DNA from: Chiloscyllium plagiosum
Lineage: Eukaryota
NCBI RefSeq assembly: GCF_004010195.1
Contig: NC_057752.1
Coordinates: 8,217,889-8,281,888 of the forward strand
Reading direction: 5' to 3'
Length of the DNA stretch: 64,000 nucleotides
Positions within the stretch are counted from its first letter, which is position 1; each line of letters opens with the position of its first letter. The position numbers were made by a program, and so were the translations under genes. Shown here piece by piece: positions 6,265 to 47,810 of the stretch. The notes beneath the pieces are model-generated. The model searched no databases and had not been told where the DNA came from. It saw nothing but the letters and a program-made list of their open reading frames with translations.

Positions 6265-7821
6265 TAATAAACAAGAGGCTGGAAGAACACAGCAAGCCAG
6301 GCAGCATCACAGCCTGAACTTCTCCACCTCCTGAAGCTGCCTGACTTGTGTTGTTCCAGTCTTCTGTCTGTCTACTTTGGATTCCAGTATCTGCAGAGTG
6401 ATAAACGTTAGTCAGCTTATAACTGCTCTGAGATATTCCTTGCTCACTGAATGTCGTCAAGACCTCACATAAATCCTCAAACAACATCTCCCACCCTCAA
6501 TAGTAAACTGAAGAGCTAGCCTGAATTACATGCTCAAGTTTCAAAAGTAGAGTTTTGGCCCGAAAGTGGGCATAAATTGCAAACACCTACAAGAATTTTA
6601 TGCACATGGAAATAATCAAATAGGTAGAATTATACGAAAATATATTTGAATAGTAGCTGTTCATACTGAGAAATGTCACAAAATACTTCACATAAATTAA
6701 AAGGTTGAGTCTTCAGGATCTTTCAAATGCATCTGGGCGAGTCGCAAATACTACGGGAGCATAGCTTTAATGTCCTTATTTTCACAACAATTCTTGATTT
6801 CGTATGCAGTTAGTTAGCAAACTTGGAAATTTGGGACGGAGGGATGAAAACACAGTTGGATCACAGGTGTTGCTTTGCAGTGCAGGCTGAGGTAATGAGA
6901 GAGGAGTTACAGCACAACAACTGGTAGAAAAGTGTAAATGCAACATGCAGCAAATCCTCGCTCTTCACACGGGATAAAGGCACGGACTTTTCCCGGATAA
7001 CAAAAAACTCCCAGACCGCTCCGATGTAACTCTCCTAGGTAGCGTGAAGGACCGCTAGATCAGAGTAGACGAGTTACCGACGAAAAATAAAGGAGTCTGG
7101 AACCAACTTTGCGAGTACCCGGATCGCAAACAGAGTGAGTGTAACAAGTTTACATAAGCATTCTGAGAAGAGTTAGATGAAAGAGATGACAACGTAAACT
7201 AAGATTCTGCAGACAGGACGTGTGCAAACATTTTGATATGTTACATGTATACTGGAAGGCTTTCCCTAGTTACCATTAAAGTGTAGGATGTGGGTTAGGT
7301 TTTGATTTTGTATCCTAGTCTGTTTGCTACGGCAAGGTAGAGAACTAAGACTATACAGTCTTCAAGAAAAACATAACTACTTCGACCAAAGTTTAGAAAT
7401 AGGTCAAATATTCAATACGGCTTTGATTTTGTAGTTAAACGTAGGAATTTGGGAAGCAGAGAAATGGTTGGATCACAAGTTTCTCTACAGGATAAACACA
7501 GCAAGGAGCGGCAGGGAGCAAAACGGAGGCATTACAGCAACATTTCAAATGATCAGAGCATAATTACAACTTGACAACCTTCCATTCTGGAAATACGGAT
7601 ATAGAAATTTACAGAGAAAGTGCACGCAAACGTAGAATTTCAATATATTTACTTTTGTTTATATTCGATTGGCGTGCATTGTTCTGTCCCAAATTCTCAA
7701 TTTTCCCGTTTAAACAATTATCAACTAAATCTCAGTCAATAGCATTATTGCCTGTGAACCCACGACCATCTGACTTTAAATCGCATTTGTGTTAAAAATA
7801 AATTTTGTATTCTAATCTCTT

Positions 7822-8525
7822 CAGTGCAGTACTAATGAAATGCTACACAATTGGAAGTGTCTTCTTACAGATTAAACATTAAGCCAAGGCTTCAACATTC
7901 CTTTCAGATGGATGTGTAATGTGTCATGGCACTATTTGAAAGAACAGCATTGCAGTTATCCCTGGTCAACAATGATCCCTCAAACGACATCCTCACATTG
8001 ATCGTGCTTTCCACAAGTTGGCTGCTGGATTTCCTACAATTTTTTTTAAAAAGTACTTCACTGACTGTAAAGCATTTTGGGATGTCCTGAGGTCATTGAG
8101 ATGTACAACATGGAAACAGACCCTTCAGTCCAACTTGTCCATGTTGACCAGACATCCTAAATAAATAGTTCCAACTGCCAGCATTTGGCCCATGTCCCTC
8201 TAAAACCTTCCTATTTATATACCCATCCAGATGCCTTTTAAATGTTGTAATTGTACCAACCTCCACCTCCTCTGGCATATATACCACCCTCTAGTTGAAA
8301 CAGTTGCCCCTTAGGTCCCTTTTAAATCTTCCCTCTCACCTTAAACTTATGACCTCTAGTTTGGACTTCCCCTACCTGGGGAAAAGATATCCATACCCCT
8401 CATGATTTTATAAACCTCTATAAGGTCACCCTTCAGTCTCTTCGGCCTCTCCATATAGCTCAAATGTTCCAACCTCAGCAACATCTTTGTAAATCAGGTC
8501 ATGAAAGACACAATAAAAAGTGCTT
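7822..8525 (+). mobile_element. Deu-domain SINE (SacSINE1/AmnSINE-like) interrupted by a minus-strand CR1 3' fragment (8097..8495)
   Basis: cagtgcagtact...catggcactatttgaa...aaaagtacttca..gactgtaaagc..tttggga.gtcctgaggtc; CR1 insert flanked by aggtcat (8090..8096, 8496..8502); family recognised from memory. Confidence 0.65.
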
Positions 8526-14858: not shown

Positions 14859-16505
14859 TCAACTCTCTTCTGCACGACAGAGGAACCTCATACTTTGGGA
14901 TGCATTTGGGTAACTGACCATTTGAGTGGTGGTATAACTCATGGCAATTCCTGGCAGTGATTGTGTAACTGCCACAGGTGTAGAGATAGCAAGTGGTGCC
15001 ATTGAAACTGGTGAAGTCATCCCCTGGACATAGGGTGCAGAGATAGAAGCGCTAAGACAAGGAGGACTTTGGGATGTGGCTTCAGAACATAATGCATTAT
15101 GAGCTCGAGCTTGCGCTATCAACTCTTGATGAGAAATGGGTTGTGATCTCAGTGTCTGGTTGCTCAGGGTGGTGTGAGTCTTTACTATGCTACGGTTATA
15201 ATTGGTAACAGTGTGCAAAGCTGGGTGTTGTGTTGGGTCAGCCCCAGTGTTCAGGATCCCCAACTTCACCTGCTTGCGCAGATCTGCATTTTGTTCCAGA
15301 AGGACCTCATTAGTCAGCATTAAGCTTGACACCTGCTTTTTGAGTTCTTCATTGCGCTTTCTGAGCATATGGTTTTCCTCCTCCAAAAAACTGAGTTCAC
15401 CTGGGCGCAGACTGGGAGTGCTGTAATCAAATACTTCAAAACGCAGGCCCTCCACCCTTCTCCTTTTCGGATGCTGGTCGTAATCACATCTCTCTGTCTC
15501 ATAGAGGTCATCCAAACGGTCATATCTACAAATCTCAGGAGAAAGTTCTCTATCTTGTGACGACACTCTTTCTACACTTTTTTTATCATTGTCATCACGT
15601 TTCAAATGCTGGAATTTACATTTGGATCCTCTTCGACATTTGCCCTTTAGAAAGTCACGACAAAATGGGATCTCCTTTGTAATAAGAGGAAGATTAGAGG
15701 GTGAAAGCCCAAAGGTCACAGCCACTGTCTGTTGCAAGTGAGCAGGAAGCTTTCCTGTTTTATTGTAATAATTCTCTTCCCCCTTCGTCCCGTGAATGAA
15801 TGTGCAGTTCTCACGGGTACATTTACTATTCTGAAAGTACTGACAAAAGATTGACTCATGCCGCATGTCACCCACATTGTAGGCCTCAACATTGTCCGGA
15901 TGAAAGTACCTGCAATTCTTACCACGGTTGCAGACATTGCGCAGAAAGTCACGGCAAACATTCCGCTTGCTCTTGCTCACCTCATATTTGCTATTATTGA
16001 CTAAATTATCAGCGTCATCACTTAGATCAGTGTGGTTGGTGACCTCAATATCATCTGGGTGAAAATACCTGCAATTCTTACCACGATTGCAGAGATTGCG
16101 CAGAAAGTCTCTGCAAATGTTCTGTTTGCTTTTGCCAGCCTCATCATTGCCAATATTCACTAAATTATCAGTGTCATTCCTTACATCAGTGAGGTCAGAA
16201 GCCTCAATGTCATCTGGGTGGATATACCTGCAATTCTTACCACGATTGCAGAGATTGCGCAGAAAGTCTCGGCAAATGTTCTGTTTGCTTTTACCAGCCT
16301 CGTCACTGGCAATGTTGACTAAATTATCAGTTTCGTTCCTTATTTCGGCAAGGTCGGAGGCCTCAATATCATCTGGGTGGAAGTACCTGCAATTCTTACC
16401 ACGGTTGCAGACATTGCGCAGAAAGTCTCGGCAAACATTCCGTTTGCTCTTGCCAGCCTCATATTTGCCGCTGTTGACTAAATTATCAGTGTCGTTCTCG
16501 GACAT
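14859..16505 (-). CDS. ZC3H10-like paralogue, 548 aa, with six CCCH zinc fingers (finger 1 present four times), KRRR motif and coiled coil
   Basis: Uninterrupted ORF, colinear with the ZC3H10 at 46608..47810 (CRDFLRNVC, FIHGTK, GLSPS, CRDFLKG.C.RGSKCKF, KRRRV.GLRFE, FLEEEN.MLRKR.EELKKQ, TNEVLLEQNA, ASQSMR); splice acceptor ttctttttcttttgcag just upstream, exon start 16553. Confidence 0.93.
   Translation of the reverse strand: MSENDTDNLVNSGKYEAGKSKRNVCRDFLRNVCNRGKNCRYFHPDDIEASDLAEIRNETDNLVNIASDEAGKSKQNICRDFLRNLCNRGKNCRYIHPDDIEASDLTDVRNDTDNLVNIGNDEAGKSKQNICRDFLRNLCNRGKNCRYFHPDDIEVTNHTDLSDDADNLVNNSKYEVSKSKRNVCRDFLRNVCNRGKNCRYFHPDNVEAYNVGDMRHESIFCQYFQNSKCTRENCTFIHGTKGEENYYNKTGKLPAHLQQTVAVTFGLSPSNLPLITKEIPFCRDFLKGKCRRGSKCKFQHLKRDDNDKKSVERVSSQDRELSPEICRYDRLDDLYETERCDYDQHPKRRRVEGLRFEVFDYSTPSLRPGELSFLEEENHMLRKRNEELKKQVSSLMLTNEVLLEQNADLRKQVKLGILNTGADPTQHPALHTVTNYNRSIVKTHTTLSNQTLRSQPISHQELIAQARAHNALCSEATSQSPPCLSASISAPYVQGMTSPVSMAPLAISTPVAVTQSLPGIAMSYTTTQMVSYPNASQSMRFLCRAEES
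15861..16496 (-). repeat. Coding tandem repeat, 4 x 159 bp (53 aa), each unit one C-x7-C-x5-C-x3-H finger plus linker
   Basis: cctgcaattcttaccacg recurs at 15909, 16068, 16227 and 16386, exactly 159 bp apart. Confidence 0.97.
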
Positions 16506-18451
16506 GATTCCAGATTATTTCTGCGCTACTCAGCCAAGGCTCTCAATAAACAACTGCAAAAGAAAAAGAAGCCAGTTCTTTTACAATGAACAAGAGATTA
16601 ATCTACAAAAGTAACTGTGGTTAATCCTTTTCTCACAAAACATTGTAGTTGTACCTATATTGTTGATTTTTTTAAAACATTAGGAGATGGCAGAAGTTTG
16701 ATAACAAAATGGAGAAGCAGTTTTATTTTGATCAGGAATTTACTATAGTAATGATGGCAAAATTGTCAGCTTTGCCATCATTTCCTTCTGTAACTGACAG
16801 CATTGTCTGAAATTCACATGTACAAAGGATAACATGGAAATTGAGAAGTTGCTATCAGTGATTTTGCATTCCTCCTCTGAAAGAACCATTTGTCTTTTCT
16901 CACTTTTAAAATGATAGGTATTAACGATTTACAGGTGCGTTTCTTTTCTTGATTATGTCAGTGGTACAACAAAATAAGTAATAATCGCTAATAAGATAAT
17001 TATTTTAAAAATGAATTCTTATTGCAATTATACTATAGGGATTTTGAAATAGAGACGTACAATCAGCAGTGGAAACAAACTACTGAAGAAACGTAAAGAA
17101 CAGAGAAAATGAAATGGTGGTGATTAAGCTCACCAGAGCAGAGTTCAGTCTACCCACAATTATACATTATTGTAGCAAATACTATGTAAAGGAATATTGC
17201 AAACCCAACCTTTCACTTTCCACATGAAATTCCATAAGAGCTTACGTCTAATCTACTGTATAAAATTCTGACAGCTAATCATTTCAGACTTGGTCCTCAA
17301 ATTCTAGATTTAAGAAAACAAAAACAAACCACTTTTAACACTTAACACCACAGCTACGAAGATAAACGTTTAACTTAAGTAGTAGGATGAGAATATCTCA
17401 GATGATTAAATGCATTCCTAAATTGCAAACTAGCATATTGCATATACACACAATCATGGCATGTTGAAATTTATATTCATTAAAGGGTCCGCGAGGAAAT
17501 ACTATTGATGGAATTTTATAGATGAACATACATGCTACAGTTTCTAATTCATAAAAGCTAATTTATGAAAACGCAACTGAAAATTTAATGCAAGCAATGT
17601 CGAATTAAGATAAAGTGTCAACTTAAGATTCAAAAGATTCAAAAATTAAACAAAATACAAACAACTCAATTTTCTTCAATATATTTAATATATAGTCAAC
17701 TTCATTGCAAGCTGCTATTGAAATAAAGGCTGGATTCTAATCCCATAATCCATATTACATTTACACATCAACTCTGACTTCAATCTACCTCCTTCACACT
17801 CTTTAATGAGGCAGTAAAACATAGTTCCTTCAATTTTTGCAAAATATTTCCTTCTTTCTAGAATCAAAATAATGGACACTTTTTGTCTTTGATAATCGGG
17901 GGGGGGGGGGAATGCTTTATTTGTTAAAAAAATGTTTTTACCTCACTCCTTCTGATTTCACATCTCCTTTATTGCTAAACTTGTTCCCAAGAATCAATTC
18001 CTCTTTCATGTCAAAAACCTTTTCATCCCTATTCCCATCCTTCAGCACCTCTTAACACTTTACATCTACCAGAAACTTGAGTACTGTTCCCACAATCTGA
18101 GAGGTGGGAAAGGGGATGACTTTTCTGACATTGTTCCAATTTCTAGGCACAAGGCAAAAACATCTTCCTGTCAGTTAGCCAACTGTCTTCACCCCATCAT
18201 CCTTTTAACAACCACAAATCTTAATGTTTATTAATATAGACCTTCTCTGAATTTTCTTTTGTTTTTCCAAAGCTCCAAACATGCAGTCTTCCTACATCTT
18301 TATTATTATTAATGCAAAGTTTATAACCCTGAATAATTAGATGTTTGTTTTTGATTGGCATACACTTGATGGGCCAAAGGACCTTTTTCTGTCTTGTCTA
18401 TCTTTCATGACTTGAAGCTCCTTGCTCTAATTAATTATTTCCAAGGACTTA

Positions 18452-18982: not shown

Positions 18983-21162
18983 TCAAAAGTATTAATTTTT
19001 TATCTTTCATTCTTTGATCCAATTATTACATGCGGGTTAACCTCAGCTTTTCCAATTTCTGTGGTGTCCCATTTAAGGAGACTTAGTGGCCAAGTTCTTA
19101 ACGTTAGAAAATGATCTTGATTTGCACGTTTTATTTGCATTCAAGAATATGGGTCTGATAGCAGCACGTCATTGAAGATAGGAAGTAGTGAATAGCTTTT
19201 ATTTTAATTTATGCTACCATAGCACAAAGTGACAATTATCTAAAACACAAACTGATTTAGTTGCAAAGATATATATATAACTTATCGGTTTAATGCCTCA
19301 AAAGTTCATACAAGAACGCCTCAATTATCTGTCAAATTGCTTCAAAATCAGTTTATCAAACTTTTTTTTGAAAGAAAAAAGGTCCCAAATAATGAATACA
19401 GGTATTGAGTAAAGGAACAGCATGGCTTCCTGCACTGAATACATTTGCCAAGATAATGTTGACAAGTGCCATCAGGCAAAGTTACAAAGGCTGCACTTTT
19501 GGGAGTTCCAATCTTTCAGTTCAGCTCCAAAATTTCTGGTCCAGTTTTTTTGATATCTGAATGAATTTTAATGTTATTATGAAAGACAGGAAGGACATAA
19601 CTTTACTATGTTTTCACCCCCAAGAACTACAGATGGGACAGTATTTTGTACTCCATCTATGTCCTCAGGATTACTGTTTCTTTAAATATAACATAGTGAT
19701 TCAGTCCAGTCAAACAGCATAACAATCAAATCATTCTGCCCATCACTACCAACTGAGTACACAAATGGAAGTTATGATGTCGTACTGAGGAATCAGACAG
19801 GATAATATAGTCCCAGGTTCATCCACAATTTGCATTAATTCTTTTTAAAATCAACCAGGGCAGCAGTGGAGGAATAAAATAAACATACCTCGATAATTCA
19901 AATTAAACTAAAAGCAAGAGTTCTAACCTGACCACTATTAAAAAAAGTGTACACATGAATATGCAGCAAAGACAGGATTAAGCTTGGCAATGTGTTTCTA
20001 CCATTGAATAGTTATCAATACCACCTCAGGATGAGTCATTATCTTTAGGTGCAAGGGGATATAACTGGGCACGACAGAAGGAAAAACAGGATTTTTAGAA
20101 TCATCTCTAAGAATTTTCACACTATAGGGTGCAAGTCAACAATAACTACAAATAGGACGAGTTGTAAAGTTATCTGACATCCAAAGGAGAAAAATGAAAA
20201 ATTTACCCTCCCTCATACCTTTGATTGATCAACTAAAAAACTTACTGCTTTCTCCTGCTCTTGCTCTTGAATGGCAAAACATAGAGCGATCTACAAAGAA
20301 TAATAATATTTGGAAATAATTTTCAGTAATTGTCATTTTTAAAAACAAAAATCACATAATTAGAGTTTTTGTTTTAAAAAGATTCCAATGGTTTAGTAGA
20401 CAAATGTACTAACTGTGTGGCAATAAAGCACGTTTCAGTTTCAATCATTATTTTATTCAAACTGGATTGGAGAATCCATGTCAATGAAGTATAAAACGAA
20501 AGGGGGGGGGGGGGGGGAAGCTTAGGTAGCATGTCGATATTCTAGACTCAGATTTAAAAACAAAGATTGGTGTATTTCTCGCCACTTGGAAAAAAATGCC
20601 AGAAATTGAGCAGTCTTAATACTGTACAGGTCATGTTACCCACAAGAAAAATCGTTTCTGCATGAAGCCAACGGGATGAAGCGGTTTCAAATAATATTTC
20701 AACGATAAATTTGAACCAAAATTCTTTTGTGTCCCATACTTGAAAACGGTGTTTTCGGTATCCTTTAGATGCTCTTGCCTTAGATTTTCATTTAGATTGT
20801 TTTGTGTTCAATCAATCAATTCCTTGCTTTCATGCCAGTTATAACATAATAATATTACTGGACACGAATTCCTTCATTCCGAAGAACAAATCCGTTCTTA
20901 GGCCTACCGGAATTCTGACAGAAACTCGCACGAAATCGCACTGTTGACAGCTCTGGTGGCGGAAAGTTCTCGAACTTGCTACGAGGCTTCATTACACTCT
21001 AGGCCTCAACGGATTTACTCAAAATGATGCAACTGTCGGCGTATAAATAGAAGTAGGGAACTTTTTTAAAAAAAAAGTAACTACAGAAATAAATAATTAC
21101 ACTCAACCAATCCCGGAATAAGACCGATATATAAAAATAGAAAGAAACAGGGCCACATTTAC

Positions 21163-21242
21163 CTACACGGTGTAAGCCTTTTTTTATCCTCTAAGTCCTC
21201 CAAGCACAACGAATATGGACTCGGGTCCTCCGAGACAAGAGC
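21163..21242 (-). other. Putative non-coding first exon of the ZC3H10 paralogue (5' boundary uncertain), in a CpG-enriched region
   Basis: Minus strand gctcttgtctcggagga...atattcgttgtgcttggagga...accgtgtag|gtaaat is homologous to 33485..33569 and ends at a GT donor. Confidence 0.7.
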
Positions 21243-22005
21243 ACCCGTTGAAGACGCTATTGAAACCAGTCTACAGCCATTGTTTAATGAACAGTAACCG
21301 CTCAGCAAACGTTTCCCATCTTATCACAAACTTTCCTTTTTGTTCTTTCTTCCCCGACTTCGATATTTCCTTAAAACGTTTAAGATATTTAACTTTTTTC
21401 AGTTCTGAACAAAGGTCTTTGACCTGAAACGTGAATTCTCTATCTACAGACACTGCCAGAACTCTCAGAATCACTATGAAGCTGAAGGAGGCCATTCGGC
21501 CCATCCTGCCGCCACCACCACATTGCCACGCAGTGCACTTCATAGCATAACTAACTCGCTGTGTCAAAAAAATCACATCGCCCTTGCTTTATTTGCATAT
21601 CACTTTAAATCTATGCCATCGTTCTTTTTCTCTATGAGCAGGAACAGCTTCTCCCTATCCACTCTGTCTCCGCCCCGTCATAATTTTTAAACTGCAAGGG
21701 GAACAGTACCAACGTTTCCAATCCATCCTCATAACTCACCTACAGATTTACACTCAGTGCCACGTACATATTTTCGACATTTCTGTTCAGTAGTACTGCA
21801 TCACAATTCCATTTCATCTTTCACCTCTTACTTTTCAACAATGGCTTTTTTTCCTTTTAAGTGTGAGGGTATCATAAGCTTTAACAACTGATGGATACTG
21901 ACACCCTTCTGGATTCATCTCTTTCCATTTCTTTGACTCCATCCCTCCTTCCAGATTTCCAGAAGGCATTTAATAAAGGGCCATGTAAAACATTATTGTA
22001 GAAAA

Positions 22006-31780: not shown

Positions 31781-33484
31781 AATCTATGAAGAATGAAGAT
31801 AGTGCATGATTGACATGCAGATGTGGTACTGTTGAATTTATACATAGGATAGAAGGTCAGAATCATAAATACTACACAGGAACAGAGAAAGCCAAAATAT
31901 GCAGTGAGCCTAAATGCTACAAAGTCACTACACCAAATAAAGCAACATTGAGGGGAAACAAAAGCCAACTCAGGGAACTGTAAAATACACCAATTGTGCA
32001 AAACATACATGCAGAAATCAACCTGGAAATGAAGGTGTGAATGGTCATCAGGACAACAAACAGTGCACTAAATACACACGTGACTTGAACACACCGACAA
32101 GTCAAGAACACCTAAGTGCGAATCCAAATCTCCAGAAGGTTATACCATCATAAGATTTGGAAGGATTGTCAAGCCACCAAATATGTCATTTAGACTCTTA
32201 ACTTTTTTCAATTACTGTTTCTATTTTAATACATTTGCGGCTACCCTAATGTAGATGTACTTTCACTCTGTGAGTAATTTTTATCTTGGGTGGGGGGGGT
32301 GGGTTTAAAAAGTAATGTGTGATTTTTGCTTCAAGACCTGATTTGTTTTAAAGAGCTGGATGTGCTCATGTGCCAAGGACTAGAATAAAATTACATGATT
32401 AACTGTTGCCCAGCCAAAAGCAAACTAGAATCAGAATCCATACAATTATCTACAACTGCAGTTACAGTAGTCTTATTGAGATTTTCAAGTAAATGGAATC
32501 CATGTGACTTAATCTGCATTGTAGATTAATAATACAACAGCTTCAATCACCACCCTCAACACCCCTTCTCCTTCCAACACAGTATCTTGTGCAAATGCAA
32601 GAGATACAAAACTTACCCTTCTCATTGTCCAAGCCTCCTTGCAATCCATCAAAATACCAATTTACGCACTGTATATGTTTTTTTTCTGTTTAGTACTCTG
32701 TATTTTCCTTTCTTACTCTCTACTGGGGAGACCAAACCTAGATTGGGTGACTGCTTTGTGGAATATATCCATTCAGGCCAGAAGCATGACCTCAGATTCC
32801 AGATTGCCTGTAATTTTCATTCTCCACTGTTCTTCCAGTTTGAACTCTGTCCTTAGCCTCCGACAGTGATCCAATGAAGGTGAATGTAAGCTCGAGGAAC
32901 AACATGCATCTTTTGATTGGGTACTTTGCAGCCTTTCGGTGTTCAAAAATTTTAACTCATAACTACTGTTTTCATTTTTCTCCAATGTAATTGGGGATTA
33001 TTCGACTTTCCTATTCACACCTACTGTAAGTCCATCATTTGTTTCCTTACACGCATTTCATTTTTACTTGCACCATCATCCTTTTTTGTCGTTTTTTTGT
33101 CGTTTACTCCCGCCTTCCACCTTTCACAGGCTTTTCCTTTTGTGTAAGCCCCCTCCCACTTTTCTTGTCTCTGTACAGGTACTTGTTATTTGCTTAAAAC
33201 CTGTTACTTCTGAATTCTTCCCCAGTTAAAGGTCACTAACCTGAAACGCTTCTCTCTGATTTTTTTTCGTTTCTCAAAAGATGGTGCAAGACTTGCTGAG
33301 TATTTCCTTGTATTGTTTCAGGTTTTCAAATTATTAACATCTATGCTGTTGGGGACTGTTCAATGTTATAGATATTAGAAAATTTATGGGCGAGGGAATT
33401 CAGGTTAAATTTTGAATGTAAAATAGTAACCGAGCTGACTGAAAGGAATTCAGGTTACGAATCGCAACTCATTGGCGTTAAGCC

Positions 33485-33563
33485 GCTCTTGTCTGGGAGG
33501 AGCTTTTTTTTGATACTCGTTGTGTTTGGAGGAGTGAAGGAGTGAAAGAGCTGAACCGTGTAT
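33485..33563 (+). other. Putative non-coding first exon of ZC3H10 (5' boundary uncertain; donor at 33560 GTATGT or 33564 GTAAAT)
   Basis: CpG-enriched context, reverse CCAAT (attgg) at 33471, homology to the minus-strand block 21157..21242. Confidence 0.7.
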
Positions 33564-34120
33564 GTAAATACATTCCTTTTTTTTTTGTCTGTTTTGTATC
33601 CGTTTTGATTTTTACTCTTGATTATTCCGACAATTTAAATATTCAGAATGAAGGTTTAATTTAGTTTTCGTGTGTACGCCGTTGTTTCATGTAGCACAAA
33701 GTTAAGGCCTAGAAATCCCGTAACAGCCTTCGAATCTCTCGACTAGCTTGTGACTGATATACGGTGTAATGTACAGTAAAATGATCGTTAAATCAGAATT
33801 TTACGAGCATTGTTTTTGAAATTTCATAGATCATTCATCCATTTGCAGCACTAAGGAATCAATATTTACTTCTGATGAAACTTGAATAGACTCTTGTTTT
33901 CTGCCGAAATGCTTCTTTCGCGTACAAAGTGGACAAGTAAGAGGTTGAAAGAACACAGCAAGCCAGGTAGTATGTACTCCACCTCCTGATGCTGTCTGGC
34001 TTGCTGTGTTCTTCCATCTCCTGCTTGTCTACTTTGGATTCCAGCGTTTGCAGTTTTTTTTTGTCGTTTTTTGAGTACAAAAGCTTATACTTCTAAATTG
34101 CCTTGAGCATAACAAAATGG

Positions 34121-37582: not shown

Positions 37583-40307
37583 GTACATCATACAGACCAA
37601 TATCCTTGCTAAATGTAGATTTTAAAATCCTCTCTAAAACGTTAGCACTGAGATTAGAAAGGATACTGCCACATATTATAAAGGAGGATCAGACGGGGTT
37701 TATTAAGGGCCGTAGATCATCCAATAATGTTAGAAGGGCTCTGAATATGATTCAAGCTTGTCATCAGGGAAAGATACCAGGAGTAGTGGTTTCATTAGAC
37801 GCAGAAAAGGCATTTGATAGGGTCGAATGGTCATATTTGTTTTACACATTGGAGAGGTTTGGCGTTGGACAGGTGTTTACCAAATGGATCTCAACATTGT
37901 ATAGTGATCCCAAAGCAGTTGTGGTTACCAATGGATTAGGCACGGATAGCTTCAGTGTGGGTAGGGGCTGCCGTCAGGAATGNNNNNNNNNNNNNNNNNN
38001 NNNNNNNNNNNNNNNNNNNNNNNNNNNNNNNNNNNNNNNNNNNNATATTGCTTCAGCCCTTCCTGCTCAGAAAGTGAGCAAGGGCCAGCAAAATTGAACT
38101 CCAGCTCTACATTCCTGATAGATTATTTGCATTGTCCATCTCATTGAACAGTGCATAGGGTCACGGTGACTATGTCATACAGAGGAGCATTTTGCAAGTG
38201 AGTGCTTTGAAAGTAAAAGATGCAAATTTGGATCCAGATTTTGAATTGCTGCACAGAGAAATAATCCTGTGTTACATGGATCAATGCCAAGTTTGCTCAC
38301 AAAAGGTAAATGTATGTAGAAATGTCCTCTGGAAATGATCCAGTGGTACAGTATAGTGAAAGATTGGATAACCCAGTCAGTCAATGCTCTGACAAATTTG
38401 AGGCTAGATAGTGTGAACCAGAAAGCTTACTTGTCAGGATGATGATTCATTGCTGGCAGTATCATTTATCAGAGACCTTTTTAATGTAACTTTCAGTGAA
38501 TGTCCTATTAAATTGTTTTCCATGTTTGTTTAACTGTGTTTTCATCTTCAAGATAGTTAAGTATACATTACCATAGCAGCAATATTAGCTTTGAAGCTAA
38601 CAGTATAACTGCATGGCTTTCTGAACAGTGATAGAATAGGTGGAGTCAGTAGGATGCATTGACTAAAAATAGCATAGTGATAAAACGGTGGTTCACAAAG
38701 CAGGTAAAGTCATCAACAACATATCTTGTCCATGTAAGGTTCCACTTTCCAAATCCCAATCTAGAATATGAAAGATATAATTTTTGCTTTTAAGTTCATA
38801 ATGATTGCACCTTAAAAATAAACAGATGGTTCCCTATTAAGTTATATAGCTGATTGGGTCTTGTCTGATCCACAATCAATCTGGTTGGACATCGAGGCTT
38901 GTCAAGTAAAATACCCACTTATTAACCTTTTATTCTCAGACAAGAGGAAAATCATTACAGATCACTGTAAAAACCCTATAATACTGAATACAATCAAGGC
39001 TTGGAATATAATGCGGCAAAATGAGGGTAATTCACATAAAACATCCCCCTATGCACCGATAGTGGGAGCATGGGGATTCCAACCGGGGTTAACAGATGCC
39101 ACTTTTAAACTCTGGAGATCCAGGGGTATCTCATGTCTCGGGGATTTATTTAAGGATGGGGTCCTGATGTCTTTCGGACAGCTGCGTGAGAAATTCGGAT
39201 TACCCAATGGAGACCTCTTTCGATACTTCCAAATTCGAGATTTTATACAGAAGAAGACTACGTTATTAGATAGTCTTTATAAATCCGATAGAGAATGTAG
39301 TGTCCTACGACCAGTGGGGGTATCTTCCGTCAGTAATATTTATCATTTGCTACATGATGAAGTATCGGGAGATATGGATAATCTGCTTAAAACATGGGAT
39401 CAGGATCTGGGACTAGAAATCTCCACAGAAACGTGGAATGATATCTGGGAAAATGCTAGAAGAATTACTATTTGTAACAGAACCCAGGCTATCCAGCTGA
39501 AGATACTTCATAGGGCCCATATAGCACCGGTTCGATTGGCAAAATTTAAGGCAGGAGCATCTCCAATGTGTCCTAAATGCAAAATAGAGGTGGGCACTCT
39601 TGTATATTGCTTATGGACCTGTCATAAGATCCGTAGATATTGGGCTAAAGTAGCAAGTACCCTGACAGAAATTTTAGGAACGGAAATTAAAGTGGACCCC
39701 GTATCTCTCCTCTTGGGCTTTTCGAACTTTCCCTCCCTGGACACGTATGGGAAGAGACTATTTTCTATTCTTTCTTTCTGTGCAAGGAAAAATATTTTGA
39801 TGAACTGGGTGGCGGAGGGCCCCCCTGGACTTTCAAATTGGCACAGACTAATTATGGAATGTATTCCCCTTGACTTCCTTTCCAATTTGGTGCAAAAGAC
39901 CGAATTATTTTATAAAATATGGCAGCCCTTTTTGAATTACATAAATACAGATATTTCGGCTATCCTAACAAGGGCTTTTATTTAATTGAGATTACAAACT
40001 TGGCTGGTCCGCGGCCCCTCGGGGGAGGAATCCCGCACGAATACGGGTTTTATCATATCTGATGCTAACACATCCCGAGCATGTAAGAGACTTAAATATA
40101 CACCCTGGTTAGTTGTAGGTTAGATTAGTAGATACTTGAGGTTTGTTTGTTTGTTTTTTTTTTTTTGTTTTGTTTTGTTTTTTTTTGTCAAATTTTGGCT
40201 ATTGTATATTTGAGCTAATTGTATATCAATGTTTATATCTGAGAGTTTTGTTTATTTTTGTAAACTTGTAAAAATGTTAAATTTCTAATAAAAATATCTA
40301 TAAAAAA
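37583..40307 (+). mobile_element. Young 5'-truncated L1-clade LINE (RT fragment, C-terminal cysteine motif, 3' UTR, poly(A)) spanning an assembly gap
   Basis: YRPISLLNVDFKIL...QTGFIKGR...SLDAEKAFDRVEW...GCRQ; ORF 38861..39985 with CPKC-x8-YCLWTC; aataaa then A-tail; 13-bp TSD aagcttacatggt (37570..37582, 40308..40320). Confidence 0.9.
37983..38044. other. Assembly gap (62 N)
   Basis: Run of n. Confidence 1.
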
Positions 40308-43282: not shown

Positions 43283-44589
43283 AGTGCGTTTTGAGAAGAT
43301 CTGTAGCTCAGGTTGAGGTTTTGGATGTAGGTTTGCTCGCTGAGCTGAAAGGTTCATTTCCAGACGTTTTGTTATCCTACTAGGTAACATCTTCAGTGGG
43401 CCTCAGGTGAAGCAATGCTGAAAATTCCTGCTTTCTATTTATATGTTTGGGTTTCTTTGGGTTGGTGATGTTATTTCCTGTGGTGAAGTCACTTCCTGTT
43501 CCTTTTCTCAGGGGGTGGTAGATGGGGTCTAACTCGATATGTTCGTTGATAGAGTTCTGGTTGGAATGCCATGCTTCTAGGAATTCTCGTGCATGTCTTT
43601 GTTTGACTTGTCCTAGGATGGATGTATTGTCCCAGTCGAAGTGGTGTCCTTCCTCATCCATATGTGAGGATACTAGTGAGAGAGGGTCATGTCTTTTTGT
43701 GGCTAGTTGGTGTTCATGTATCCTCGTGGCTAGTTTTCTACCTGTTTGTCCAATGTAGTGTTTGTTACAGTCCTTGTATGGTACTTTGTAAATTACGTTA
43801 GTTTTGCTCATTGTCTTATAGGGTCTTTCAAGTTCATTAGCTGCTGTTTTAGTGTGTTGGTGGGTTTGTGGGCTACCATGATGCCAAGGGGTCTGCATAG
43901 TCTGGCAGTCATTTCCGAGATGCCTTTGATGTAGGGGAGAGTGGCTTGGGTTTCTGGATGTGTTTTGTCTGCTTGTTTGGGTTTGTTGCTGAGAAATTGG
44001 TGGACTGTGTTCATTGGGTACCCATTCTTTTTGAATACACGGTATAGGTGATTTTCCTCTGCTCTGTGTAGTCCCTCTGTCCTGCAGTGTGTGTTGGCTC
44101 ATTGAAATAATGTTCTGATGCAGCTTCGTTTGTGTATGTTGGGATGATTGCTTCTGTAGTTCAATATTTGGTCTGTATGTGTTGTTTTTCTGTAGAAGTT
44201 GGTTTGAAGTTCCCCATTGGCTGTTCGCTGTACTGTGACATCTAGGAATGGCAGTTTGTTGTTGTTTTCCTCCTCTTTAGTGAATTTTATGCCAGAAAGG
44301 GCATTATTGGTGGTCTTGAGAATTCCTAGAAGCATGACATTCCAACTGGAACTCTATCAACGAACACATCGAGTTAGACCTCATCTACCACCCCCTGAGA
44401 AAAGGAAGTGGAAGTGGCTTCACCACAGGAAATGACATTACCAACCCAAAGAAACCCAAACATTATAATTAGAAAGCAGGAATTTTCAGCATTGCTTCGC
44501 CTGAGGTCCACAGAAGATGTTATCTAGTAAGGTAATGAAACGTCTGGAAATGAATCTTACAGCTCAGCAAGCAAACCTACATCCAACGC
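43283..44589 (-). mobile_element. 5'-truncated Penelope-like retroelement (RT thumb plus GIY-YIG endonuclease) with inverted terminal repeats
   Basis: IKFTKEEE...LPFLDV...YRKTTHTDQILNYRSNHP; NVIYKVP..DC.KHYIGQTGRKLATRIHEH...REFLEA; ~268-bp inverted arms 43321..43588 and 44318..44586; flanking direct repeat tatttcat (43275..43282, 44590..44597). Confidence 0.92.
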
Positions 44590-46607
44590 TATTTCATCTT
44601 TGCTGATGTAGCCTTCCTATAACTGGGCACCATAAACTACCACAAAGTACTCCAACTGCAGTCTGACTAATGTCTTATGCAAGTTTAACACATCTCCTTA
44701 TTTTGGTGTTTGATACTTCTAATTATAAAACCCAAGAATTTGTGTTTTCCTTTTTATTCATGATGTTCGTGAAACTGATAATATTTTCAGTGAATGCCTG
44801 CAGTATCAAGGTTTTTTACATAAATAAATGTACTTCAACTTGTTGAAATAGCTGTTTCTCATTGAATAATTTATGTATATTCAGAATATTTTCAATTTAC
44901 ATACTTTTTCCCCTCAAAGTAATACTGTTCCCTCTACAAATATCTTCTGCATCAGTTGTCATGATCCCAATGTCTATGGCTAAATGGAGTTTTACTGATG
45001 CCACCTTTTGTTAATATTGATCGGTTTGTGATAAATGAAATAAGTTAGAGCTCTGTGATACTGGCCCAGATACACTGGTAAGGAATTACTTTTAGCTTTG
45101 TGTTATCAAAACGGGGAATGAGCTTTGTCATCAGTGTCACTTTCTGGGTAGGGGATGATGAAAGAACAACACTGAAAATGATTTTTCACACCTGCACTAC
45201 TTTAATAATCTTATAATTTTCAGCTGTGTACATTATTCATTTCAGTGGCCATCATTTGGAGCTTTCAGTCCATTCATTATTGACTATCAAAGGCACACAA
45301 GGTTCTGGCAAACAGATACCCTAAAAAAAATGGTATCAAAGTTCTGAATTTCATCAACTGCATTTTGTTTTCAAACAAACATTCCTGGCAAAAGTAATTT
45401 CTACTCTTGTCTTTCCAATCACTGTCCATTTTCACCTTTTCACTTTCTTGTATGTCATCTCATTATGTTTCTAGTTCTGTGATACTTTCAATTTTTTTTG
45501 TTTCTTTGGGTTCACATTTGTTTAGTATGATTGCAAGTATTGGATTCCACCACCAACCCCCACCACTATCTGTCTCAAGTGCTGACTCTCTTGCTGGGGT
45601 ACTTATGCATTATCTTCTTTACCAAATTGTGGGCATTCTTTACGTGCTAGTCAGGGTAATAATGAATGACCCTTACAAATGCTGGGATCAAAGGTGATAC
45701 CAAGCATTGTGGTCCCAAAGCTCTCATGTATATTTTCCAGTAGAGGTCACAGAGTTGAAATTCGAAGTGAAAACTCTCGCTTTTTTTTGTTTTCTGGATT
45801 GCTAAAAGCCATAGTCAACAATTCTTTCCAGGCAAGCAGGTGTAGTTTGTACTTTGGTCAATGAGTCAGGTACTCTTATTTATTTTTTTCAGTTTTCTCC
45901 CATCCCAATACCCAGAATTGTTTCTACACTGAGAAAAGAAATACGTCTTCCTCACTTCCATTAGTGATACTTTGAAGTGTGTGAAAGCTATATATTATGA
46001 ATTACTCTCTGATACTTCTGAAAGTATGCATGTACATTGAATGTGGTTAAGTTAATTCATGATAAAGTCTAAATCTTGGAGTTGTTTTGAAAGAAGCAAT
46101 TTTTATTTACTTTACATAACTGCATCTATATGAAATGTATCTCAGACTAATGAAGTAAATTTCTTTTTGTTCTTTGGTGATATCTAAAATGATGTAGGTT
46201 TGGCAAACCTCGGGCAAGTTTGCAATGAACATAAGCCAAGCACAAAATAACCTATAATTTATTACAATCCATACTTATCATTCCCCAACTCCGCCAAGGG
46301 ATCAGTGATGAAAGTGTGACTCTGGTACAGTAGGAGGTAGACTTCCGAAGTTGTAGTGAAGCCACATTGTGAGGAAGCATGTGGTACAACTAACCTAGTA
46401 ATGTTTGTTGCTGACTCTGGGCACATTTAGAAACCTTTTTCAATTCCATTACAATCATTGCTTAGCTTGCTGAGTACCAATTACAGTGGTTCAGGTAACA
46501 CTTAGCTTGTGGACTAATTCCTCCTTCTCTGTAAAGACATACCTTGATTTTCTTTTTCAGATGTTTTTGTGTACAGTGGCTGAGAAGCACAGAAATAGTC
46601 TGTGAAG

Positions 46608-47810
46608 ATGCCGGATAAAGATAATTTATTTAACAGTGGTAATGACGAGGCTGGCCACAGCTCAGATGATATTTGCCGAGACTTCCTGCGCAATGTCTGC
46701 AAACGTGGTAAGCGCTGCAAGTTCTATCACCCTGATATTAATGAAGTGTCTGACTTGGGCGTAAAGAAAAATGAATTTGTCTTTTGTCATGACTATCAGA
46801 ACAAGGAGTGCACTCGCATCAACTGCAAGTTTATTCATGGGACAAAGGAGGATGAGGAACATTATAAAAAGTCAGGAGAGCTTCCCCCACGCCTGCGCCT
46901 GACAGTGGCCATGGGTCTTGGCCTTTCGCCATCTGACCTCTCTTTTAAAAAAGGTGAGGTCCCAATTTGTCGTGACTACTTGAAAGGTGACTGTCAACGA
47001 GGATCTAAGTGTAAATTCCGGCACTTAAAACGTGATGAATATGAATATGAAAACAGAACTTTGGAGAGATTGTCACGAGACCAAGTGATTTCTCCTGTAG
47101 TGCGTCGATATGACCCATTTGATGACCTCTATGACACTGATCGCTATGTAGATTATGACCATGTTCTCAAGAGACGAAGAGTTGATGGCTTGCGATTTGA
47201 GAGTTATGATTTTAATATCCCAAATTCGCGTCCAGTTGACTATCGGTTTCTGGAGGAGGAGAATCTGATGCTTCGAAAGCGTATTGAGGAACTCAAAAAA
47301 CAGATCTCAAATTTAATGGCAACTAATGAGGTACTTTTGGAGCAAAATGCACATTTCCGCAACCAAACCAAGGTGGTCACGCTGACCTCCACTCCCACAG
47401 CAACAGAGCAAACACTGGCAGCACCAACTGTGGGTGCAATCACCAATTACAACCATGGAATAGCACAGACTCACACCACTTTGAGCAGCCAAGCGCTTCA
47501 ACCGCGACCTGTCACCCAGCAAGACCTGGTGGCAACTGCTGGAGCTACTGCTGCACCACCTGCTAACGCTGCACCAACAGCACAGCATCTTAATCCTGAG
47601 ATTGCTTCACTTCCTGCAGCGCTTGCCCAGACCATTGCCCAGGGGATGGCGCCTCCAGTCTCTATGGCCCCAGTGGCTGTTTCTGTTGCACCAGTGGCAG
47701 TGTCAATTGCACAAGCAATGCCAGGAATCACTATTAGCCATGCCACCACTCCAATGGTTACTTATCCAATTGCATCACAGAGTATGAGGATAACAGCAAT
47801 TCCTCACTGA
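46608..47810 (+). CDS. ZC3H10: Zinc finger CCCH domain-containing protein 10, 400 aa, single coding exon
   Basis: MPDKD start, three CCCH fingers (CRDFLRNVCKRGKRCKFYH, CHDYQNKECTRINCKFIH, CRDYLKGDCQRGSKCKFRH), coiled coil LEEENLMLRKRIEELKKQ, C-terminus MVTYPIASQSMRITAIPH; acceptor ttttctttttcag ends at 46560. Confidence 0.96.
   Translation: MPDKDNLFNSGNDEAGHSSDDICRDFLRNVCKRGKRCKFYHPDINEVSDLGVKKNEFVFCHDYQNKECTRINCKFIHGTKEDEEHYKKSGELPPRLRLTVAMGLGLSPSDLSFKKGEVPICRDYLKGDCQRGSKCKFRHLKRDEYEYENRTLERLSRDQVISPVVRRYDPFDDLYDTDRYVDYDHVLKRRRVDGLRFESYDFNIPNSRPVDYRFLEEENLMLRKRIEELKKQISNLMATNEVLLEQNAHFRNQTKVVTLTSTPTATEQTLAAPTVGAITNYNHGIAQTHTTLSSQALQPRPVTQQDLVATAGATAAPPANAAPTAQHLNPEIASLPAALAQTIAQGMAPPVSMAPVAVSVAPVAVSIAQAMPGITISHATTPMVTYPIASQSMRITAIPH

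Follow-up and report, generated by a model that had tools for sequence, protein, structure and literature searches.

A six-finger ZC3H10 paralogue of sharks and rays with an apparently ancient and fixed zinc-finger array

Introduction

The bony vertebrates sampled have one ZC3H10 gene, encoding three fingers, and its role on RNA versus DNA is debated. In vertebrates the protein combines its three CCCH fingers with an NLS, a coiled coil or bZIP-like region and a Pro-rich tail. Here we describe a second, six-finger ZC3H10 gene found on the minus strand of a 64,000-nucleotide stretch of the Chiloscyllium plagiosum genome (hereafter the window), where it forms an intact open reading frame of 548 amino acids (16505-14859). 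Four of its fingers are copies of the first finger of ZC3H10 (ZF1) that repeat with an exact period of 159 bp. The array appears, from comparison of its orthologues, to be a fixed and ancient design that is older than the split between sharks and rays and has since been held by purifying selection.

RefSeq annotates the gene only as ZC3H10-like, and it belongs to a known family rather than to a new class of system. We found no description of it among the matches listed in the ZC3H10 literature, including those from shark, paralogue and X-chromosome angles, nor in the literature on cartilaginous-fish CCCH proteins or on finger number and avidity. The gene offers a clean case of fast remodelling followed by some 300 million years of stasis.

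Results and Discussion

The six-finger gene and its canonical neighbour

The features of the locus are as follows.

14859-16505, minus strand: coding sequence (one exon, 548 aa) of the six-finger ZC3H10 gene; shark and ray orthologues share 84-100% identity with it
16338-16496, minus strand: unit 1, type A leader; finger aa 25-43 at 16377-16433
16179-16337, minus strand: unit 2, type B leader with a unit-1-like tail, the least conserved unit; finger aa 78-96 at 16218-16274
16020-16178, minus strand: unit 3, type B leader; finger aa 131-149 at 16059-16115
15861-16019, minus strand: unit 4, type A leader, at the native distance of 37 aa from ZF2; finger aa 184-202 at 15900-15956
15792-15845, minus strand: ZF2, aa 221-238; Arg equivalent to human R89 in 18/18 orthologues
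15606-15662, minus strand: ZF3, aa 282-300
15456-15470, minus strand: basic motif resembling a nuclear-localisation signal, aa 346-350, corresponding to human 205-213
15267-15389, minus strand: coiled coil or bZIP-like region, aa 373-413; Pfam bZIP_1 E=0.021, under the cut-off
16506-16608, minus strand: 5' UTR part of the coding exon (exon start 16553) and intron acceptor; homologous to the canonical-gene region
21163-21594, minus strand: upstream non-coding exon within a CpG-rich stretch (about 20.5-22 kb); spliced contig of run X20 and contig of run X9; donor 21162
46608-47810, plus strand: canonical three-finger ZC3H10, 400 aa, divergent neighbour

A pattern scan of the protein locates six fingers, with first cysteines at residues 25, 78, 131, 184, 221 and 282, and Pfam returns CCCH fingers together with the sub-threshold bZIP-like stretch. 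The last three fingers (Cys 184, 221 and 282) retain the spacings of 37 and 61 aa that separate ZF1, ZF2 and ZF3 in the canonical protein (Cys 23, 60 and 121). Canonical ZC3H10 itself lies head-to-head with the six-finger gene, 30 kb apart, and the two proteins are about 50% identical over 394 aa.

The six-finger gene is spliced and expressed. Specifically, a contig from run X20 (organism C) joins position 16553 to 21180-21427, with 86 intervening letters unplaced; a pyrimidine tract and an AG precede 16553, and a GT donor is present at 21162. Two RNA-like runs (organisms B and C) have zero depth at 16987-17620 and at 19206-20156, whereas a DNA run is covered there. None of the runs matching the stretch is on record as RNA, and the contigs from the RNA-like runs show neither strand nor expression level. 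At least half of the stretch's words are found in 20 runs from 8 studies, and four of the 24 runs listed were compared. Raw single-cell run X24, for which about 2 in 100 reads were used, has a depth of 0-2.5 on the gene and is nearly blank over the array, and is therefore uninformative there. The CpG-rich stretch around the upstream exon (observed/expected ratio 0.89-0.97) is likely to be the promoter region of the gene.

Depth in X20 at 16670-16986, together with the unplaced contig letters, suggests a small additional 5' UTR exon.

An exact-period array of four units

A sequence-only reading of this DNA had described four finger repeats of exact 159-bp period without indels, and this description is confirmed. 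Positions 15861-16496 (minus strand) divide exactly into 4 x 159 bp that lie in frame within the 548-aa reading frame, and Tandem Repeats Finder reports a period of 159, 3.9 copies, 84% matches, 0% indels and a score of 805, whereas the runner-up array in the window scores 98. The motifs quoted as shared by units 1 and 4, and by units 2 and 3, are present as that reading gave them.

Its A-B-B-A order holds for the leader plus finger, where this is the best quartet in 17/17 four-unit proteins, but fails for the 12-residue tail, in which units 1 and 2 are closest (a mean of 2.5 differences, against 4.8-7.6 for the other pairs). Among 14 two-state DNA columns, 10 favor 1+4|2+3, four favor 1+2|3+4 and none favors 1+3|2+4; the first count exceeds the expectation of one third (p=0.004). 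A tree of the units also recovers units 2 and 3 against units 1 and 4 across species (SH-aLRT 97).

The idea that the array is an artefact of assembly is practically inconceivable, given that units differ pairwise at 20-46 of 159 bases and that the same architecture occurs in 16 other records, independent assemblies that already refute it. Moreover, the same five contigs tile the array in a DNA-like run (organism A) and in two RNA-like runs (organisms B and C), breaking only at the common finger core; every piece between fingers is a separate contig, with few differences or none. The three inner pieces of the DNA run reach depths of 7.8-8.0, versus 7.2-7.65 for the flanks, and show no alternative letters, which is consistent with one copy of each but is not proof of it.

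Four units across sharks and rays

Among the matches listed, which cover 15 of the 19 proteins in the cluster of the query, there are 18 full-length six-finger-type proteins, counting the query; two partial Hemiscyllium records and two near-copies of a skate-like protein were left out of the counts. One of them, a ZC3H10-like record from Chiloscyllium punctatum, is 99.8% identical to the 548-aa protein. Four ZF1 units are present in 17 of the 18 orthologues, which we take to span ten orders, and the record from the sawfish Pristis pectinata has three. The spacing between fingers is exactly 53 aa in 52 of 53 cases, the exception being a 10-aa insert in Pristiophorus. Between sharks and rays the six-finger protein is 88-89% identical and the array alone 89%, compared with 91-96% for the canonical gene. 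After these orthologues, the best matches fall to about 50% identity and are ordinary ZC3H10.

The units are likewise stable in position. In a set of 71 units, the nearest unit from another species is the one at the same position in 1116 of 1190 comparisons; unit 2 is involved in 64 of the 74 mismatches, and unit 4 forms a clade with support of 99. Between units, finger dN is 0-0.045 and dS 0.20-0.67, with about 11 synonymous sites each. Because nearly all orthologues have four units, the units group by position, and dN is far below dS, the array appears to be fixed and ancient rather than variable in copy number. The split that it predates is dated to 265-349 million years in the available part of bioRxiv 2025.02.26.637739.

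The sequence-only reading had instead proposed that the copy number may vary, and this proposal was not borne out. A recombining, copy-number-variable repeat under weak constraint could draw on the three-unit Pristis record, the 10-aa lead-in triplication in Pristiophorus, the split record from Hemiscyllium ocellatum, and an excess of changes common to units within lineages (see below). Against these stand the constancy of four units noted above, units that are only 54-89% alike at synonymous sites (corrected dS 0.38-2.0 over 50 codons), and the identical five-piece tiling in runs of three organisms. Furthermore, no longer arrays were found among proteins of 301-2740 aa when the best 8000 candidates were scored per search. 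We consider such a repeat highly improbable.

In Pristiophorus it is a five-residue lead-in that is triplicated ahead of unit 4, and the H. ocellatum records split after unit 3. One skate-like six-finger-type protein has a different, shorter C-terminus.

Arrays of the PRDM9 type offer a useful comparison. They consist of C2H2 fingers, are homogenised within species and change fast. The six-finger array resembles them as an exact-period, indel-free coding repeat of zinc fingers, but its fingers are CCCH, its units are position-specific and it is nearly frozen.

Remodelling of the finger

Every unit carries a remodelled form of ZF1. The sequence-only reading had contrasted a basic lead-in with the acidic canonical one, written as HSSDD. 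The charge contrast holds, in that the six residues before the first Cys have a net charge of +1 to +3 in 71/71 units and of -1 to -4 in 114/114 other vertebrate ZF1 fingers, but the letters HSSDD are those of sharks and differ in other vertebrates. Similarly, its CNRGKNC motif is found in all four units of the window, but its first N is not constant across the 71 units (44 N, 14 T, 12 S and 1 H), and only the second is fixed. These residues correspond to losses of basic residues, from K/R in 114/114 canonical fingers at +9 to N/T/S/H, and from R in 114/114 at the +13 loop position to N in 71/71 units. At +17, R/K in 110 of 114 canonical fingers gives way to F in 66 of 71 units. Thus, at the sequence level, the charge reversal looks like a local swap in which basic residues left the finger and appeared in the lead-in. 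Invariant in all 71 units are the four zinc ligands, R+1, F+3, R+5, R+10, G+11 and Y/F+16.

The linkers between fingers, of about 34 residues, are less conserved than the fingers. Because they carry a charge of -7 to -8, whole units are near neutral (+1, -2, -3 and +3 for units 1 to 4). The sequence-only reading had suggested that the array may bind regularly repeated sites; such linkers would fit flexible tethers better than a rigid ruler.

Downstream of the array, the ZF2 arginine, the NLS-like motif and the Ser-Pro site between ZF2 and ZF3 (equivalent to S126) are kept in 18/18 orthologues, and the strict coiled-coil pattern in 16/18. The coiled coil aligns with that of the canonical neighbour over 40 gap-free residues with a dN of 0.11.

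At the C-terminal end (14862-14891, minus strand), MRFLCRAE.S replaces the vertebrate MRIT..PH in 17/18 orthologues.

How the array formed

The inference of the sequence-only reading that finger 1 diverged before it was amplified stands up well: K at -6 of the lead-in and N at +13 are present in all 71 units, and N at +13 occurs in 0 of 114 canonical ZF1 fingers. Gene conversion or exchange, which it had invoked for the A-B-B-A order, is unneeded as the cause, since a three-unit ancestor whose middle underwent a single offset duplication suffices. Most simply, the middle duplication would be the youngest and its breakpoint offset, and A-B-B-A is then an ordinary duplication history. If, in an A-B-A ancestor, the 159 bp from the unit 1 tail up to and including the next unit's finger were duplicated, this one step would yield both the leader pattern and the tail pattern.

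Some exchange between units at a later stage is likely, in the form of occasional conversion or parallel change. Across ten lineages, lineage-specific changes common to units of the same species number 16, versus 6.7 expected by permutation (p=0.0008). The excess depends on the catsharks used: the counts are 13 versus 5.9 with the catshark other than Scyliorhinus torazame, and 7 versus 3.5 (p=0.052) with neither.

The leaders hold further traces of this history. Type B leaders have an Asn-Asp that agrees with the canonical gene, and the Lys and Val of type A match a 279-aa sister protein (described below). With the matches split in this way, the Tyr of units 1 and 4 requires either a reversion in type B or an early exchange. 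We rejected the canonical gene as a conversion donor for the type B leaders, as the canonical acidic lead-in is absent between the matching residues.

In outline, a local inverted duplication of DNA would have produced a second gene, which then evolved fast and had its first finger remodelled. The remodelled finger and its lead-in would have been copied in tandem to three units (A-B-A) and then four, all before sharks and rays separated. Thereafter, purifying selection would have kept the array in near-stasis, with occasional exchange between units.

Origin among the ZC3H10 paralogues of cartilaginous fishes

DNA similarity between the six-finger and canonical genes runs from the end of the intron through the first finger (72% over 246 bp), which indicates that the copy arose at the DNA level. 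We rejected a retrocopy origin, as homology extends into the intron acceptor. The two genes share the ZF1-ZF2-ZF3 spacing, the Ser-Pro site, the NLS, the coiled coil, a single coding exon and a homologous acceptor; the six-finger copy differs in its four ZF1 units at a 53-aa period, the basic lead-in, the Arg-to-Asn loop change and the altered C-terminus.

Synonymous divergence between the inverted paralogues is lower in the leader and finger of unit 1 (8 of 22 sites) than in ZF2-ZF3 and the coiled coil (48 of 75; Fisher p=0.028). The region of low divergence is 16363-16608 (minus strand) versus 46507-46744 (plus strand), and non-coding homology lasts around the acceptor. Either conversion long ago between the two inverted genes or splice-related constraint may account for this.

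The six-finger protein falls inside the vertebrate ZC3H10 clade, with support of 100/99 against two invertebrate-like outgroups and SH-aLRT 99 against five. It is not the canonical orthologue: in a 26-row tree, a canonical clade of chimaera and elasmobranchs (97/93) excludes it, and a tree built without the repeat likewise places it outside. In the 26-row tree, whose long branches may pull paralogues together, the six-finger clade (100/100) is sister to a clade of 279-aa proteins (91/82, unstarred), and these two join two-finger forms of 226/248 aa in a starred clade (97/94). An origin straight from the canonical gene after the chimaera split is disfavored (AU p=0.036 on 19 rows), with the same long-branch caveat. 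Branch lengths, in changes per column, are 0.55 for the six-finger stem, 0.06-0.11 for crown paths and 0.027 for the canonical elasmobranch stem. The gene thus appears to have changed fast and then stood nearly still.

The 279-aa three-finger gene occurs on contigs of the same size as those with the six-finger gene in at least 10 species, with neighbouring accessions. Two-finger forms (226-248 aa and 287-329 aa) that lack ZF2 are found on the same and on other contigs, and one accession adjoins canonical ZC3H10 in Callorhinchus. Neither the 279-aa nor the two-finger paralogues are present in the 64-kb window. At least four further ZC3H10-like types exist in cartilaginous fishes (P0156, P0163, P0173, P0162, P0169, P0268). 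These other paralogues differ from the six-finger gene in having a single ZF1 with an acidic lead-in.

Among the matches, the six-finger form is found in elasmobranch records only; of 115 other vertebrate top matches, 114 have three fingers and one, a fragment, has two. Searches of proteins of 30-300, 301-959 and 960-2740 aa (best 8000 candidates each) and of the best 150 representatives gave no six-finger protein from a chimaera, with one holocephalan species represented. Other many-finger proteins are unrelated arrays without the coiled coil, except for the four-finger records P0171 and P0270. Cartilaginous fishes therefore hold a series of two-, three- and six-finger proteins, all with the coiled coil, in which the contribution of each finger and of valency is directly testable.

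Two distinct canonical three-finger records of Rhinoraja longicauda (P0009 and P0012) lie on the same contig and may reflect a recent duplication.

A candidate multivalent RNA-binding protein

Amplification of an RNA-binding finger with its pocket residues kept points to multivalent binding of single-stranded RNA. We judge that the protein is probably, though far from certainly, a nuclear coiled-coil protein that binds such RNA through fingers on acidic tethers. In the available text of PMC6911170, citing Treiber 2017, mammalian ZC3H10 binds RNA through ZF1 and ZF2; that source and the accessible part of PMC13686912 describe a block to pri-miR-143 processing, and PMC11612968, as far as available, gives the motif GCAGCG/AGUGCAG.

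The best PDB sequence match is MBNL1 ZnF3 (E=1.8e-6), in which Phe202 intercalates in a GC step and Arg186/190/195/201 flank the pocket (PMC9780971, available text). By our mapping of residue numbers, the invariant unit positions appear to align with these RNA-contact residues. MBNL1/2 thus share CCCH fingers with matching arginine and aromatic pocket positions, and their multiple fingers on a flexible linker bind clustered short motifs, as the accessible text of PMC9780971 describes. MBNL proteins repeat a two-finger tandem (C-x7-C-x6-C-x3-H and C-x7-C-x4-C-x3-H), whereas this array repeats single C-x7-C-x5-C-x3-H fingers and is joined to a coiled coil. We rejected membership of the MBNL family on this spacing.

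Each unit would fold as a CCCH finger around zinc and hold a short element of single-stranded RNA, much as a GC step is held by MBNL-type fingers. Three further fingers, on flexible and acidic linkers, ahead of the ZF1-ZF2-ZF3 core may give more avidity for target RNAs with clustered motifs, and the acidic linkers may damp unspecific binding. The move of basic residues from loop to lead-in probably shifts the preference for flanking bases. The kept nuclear signal and coiled coil would place the protein in the nucleus, probably as a dimer.

Several observations weigh against RNA binding. Units 1-3 have no ZF2 partner of the kind that forms a compact tandem in MBNL (PMC9780971, in its available part). 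With the loop Arg replaced by Asn in every unit and two more basic positions mostly lost, each finger may now bind more weakly or bind a different ligand. The three-unit sawfish record implies that the fourth unit may be dispensable. Finally, mammalian ZC3H10 acts on DNA too, without its fingers in one study and dependent on all three in another, as far as the available texts of these studies show. The motifs given for ZC3H10 on DNA are TYCCNG/TTTC.

A protein that is mainly a DNA-binding transcription regulator, with extra fingers that widen or retarget promoter contacts, possibly to single-stranded DNA, is in our estimate rather unlikely. The retained NLS-like motif, coiled coil, Ser-Pro site and ZF2 arginine agree with it, as does repression of interferon-stimulated genes by ZC3H10, which needs all three fingers, the NLS and the coiled coil (PMC13375009, accessible text). 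However, binding to the UCP1 promoter occurs via the bZIP-like region and does not require the fingers, according to the available text of PMC6911170, so this mode of activation does not predict finger amplification. In addition, the R89A primers given in the accessible part of PMC13375009 apparently specify residues around position 190 and not ZF2, when compared with the marmoset ZC3H10 protein, which weakens the residue-level result.

We are equally doubtful that the remodelled fingers form a protein-binding or decoy module, by which the paralogue would tune canonical ZC3H10 through coiled-coil pairing. Such a module could explain the loss of three basic finger positions, the gain of an exposed aromatic at +17, the changed C-terminal end and the close match of the two coiled coils. 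Yet the positions equivalent to RNA contacts are precisely the invariant ones, and the lead-in has gained two or three basic residues.

Structure prediction bears on part of the protein. AlphaFold2 reached a pLDDT of 32 with 18 orthologues and of 51 with 145 sequences; the latter model (pTM 0.23) has a pLDDT of 85-90 for unit 4 and of about 30 for units 2-3. Its confidence is limited to unit 4, ZF2 and ZF3, since the deep rows of the alignment fall there. Foldseek ranked MBNL1 first with this pTM 0.23 model, at E=0.12 and an rmsd of 12 Å, and returned no match at E<=0.001. Matches in the ESM Atlas are generic CCCH clusters (<=0.81). A wide structural search gave small helix-turn-helix domains with a best Z of 3.0, which we treated as noise.

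Chromosomal location

The six-finger gene is probably X-linked, judging by the sizes of the sequences that carry it and those published for X or X-homologous chromosomes. In Narcine, the orthologue and the neighbouring canonical gene are both carried by a sequence of 103,180,129 bp, the exact published size of chr12, which according to the available part of bioRxiv 2025.02.26.637739 carries a block homologous to the elasmobranch X, fused with autosomes. The carrier sequences of Pristis (16,413,646 bp) and Carcharodon (28,814,942 bp) match the published X range of 16.4-28.8 Mb, and that of Mobula hypostoma (73,079,903 bp) is close to the upper value of 73.0 Mb for X1/X2 (bioRxiv 2025.02.26.637739, accessible text). 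Against a neat fit, the skate carrier sequences are 8.1-11.5 Mb, under the published range. Part of human chromosome 12 shows homology to the shark X (PMC10620051), and ZC3H10 is named in the abstract of a paper on 12q13.2-q13.3 deletion (PMC6262175), each as far as its text is available.

If the X linkage is true, this would be a lineage-specific gene on the oldest known vertebrate X. ZC3H10 is absent from the main text and readable supplements of the shark sex-chromosome papers considered here; the SI appendix of PMC12318234 and the tables of bioRxiv 2025.02.26.637739 may list it. Screens for sex-determination candidates that rely on one-to-one orthologues discard such genes by design, as the available text of bioRxiv 2025.02.26.637739 indicates.

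Genes on the elasmobranch X are described, in the accessible text of PMC12318234 and PMC11406177, as having no global dosage compensation; that text gives no known master sex gene and names Acvr1b and Igfbp6 as candidates. One could imagine the six-finger gene as a dose-sensitive, X-linked RNA regulator, unique to sharks and rays, that contributes to dosage-based determination of sex in elasmobranchs. The six-finger form would have arisen on the elasmobranch stem, the branch on which an uncompensated XY system originated about 300 million years ago, and then frozen, and a multivalent binder could turn a twofold difference in dose into a switch. We regard this as a very long shot, because nothing found here ties the gene to gonads and hundreds of X genes have the same location.

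Other features of the window

Repeats are present at 18.3-19.2 and 21.7-23 kb. Two further CpG-rich stretches occur, at 6500-8000 (observed/expected up to 0.83) and at 33000-34000 (up to 0.95); the latter may be the promoter of the canonical gene, and the former may serve a gene beyond the window. A 62-base run of N lies at 37983-38044, distant from the six-finger gene. An inverted repeat of 269 bp (43321-43588 and 44318-44586, 91% identical) adjoins a LINE-like open frame.
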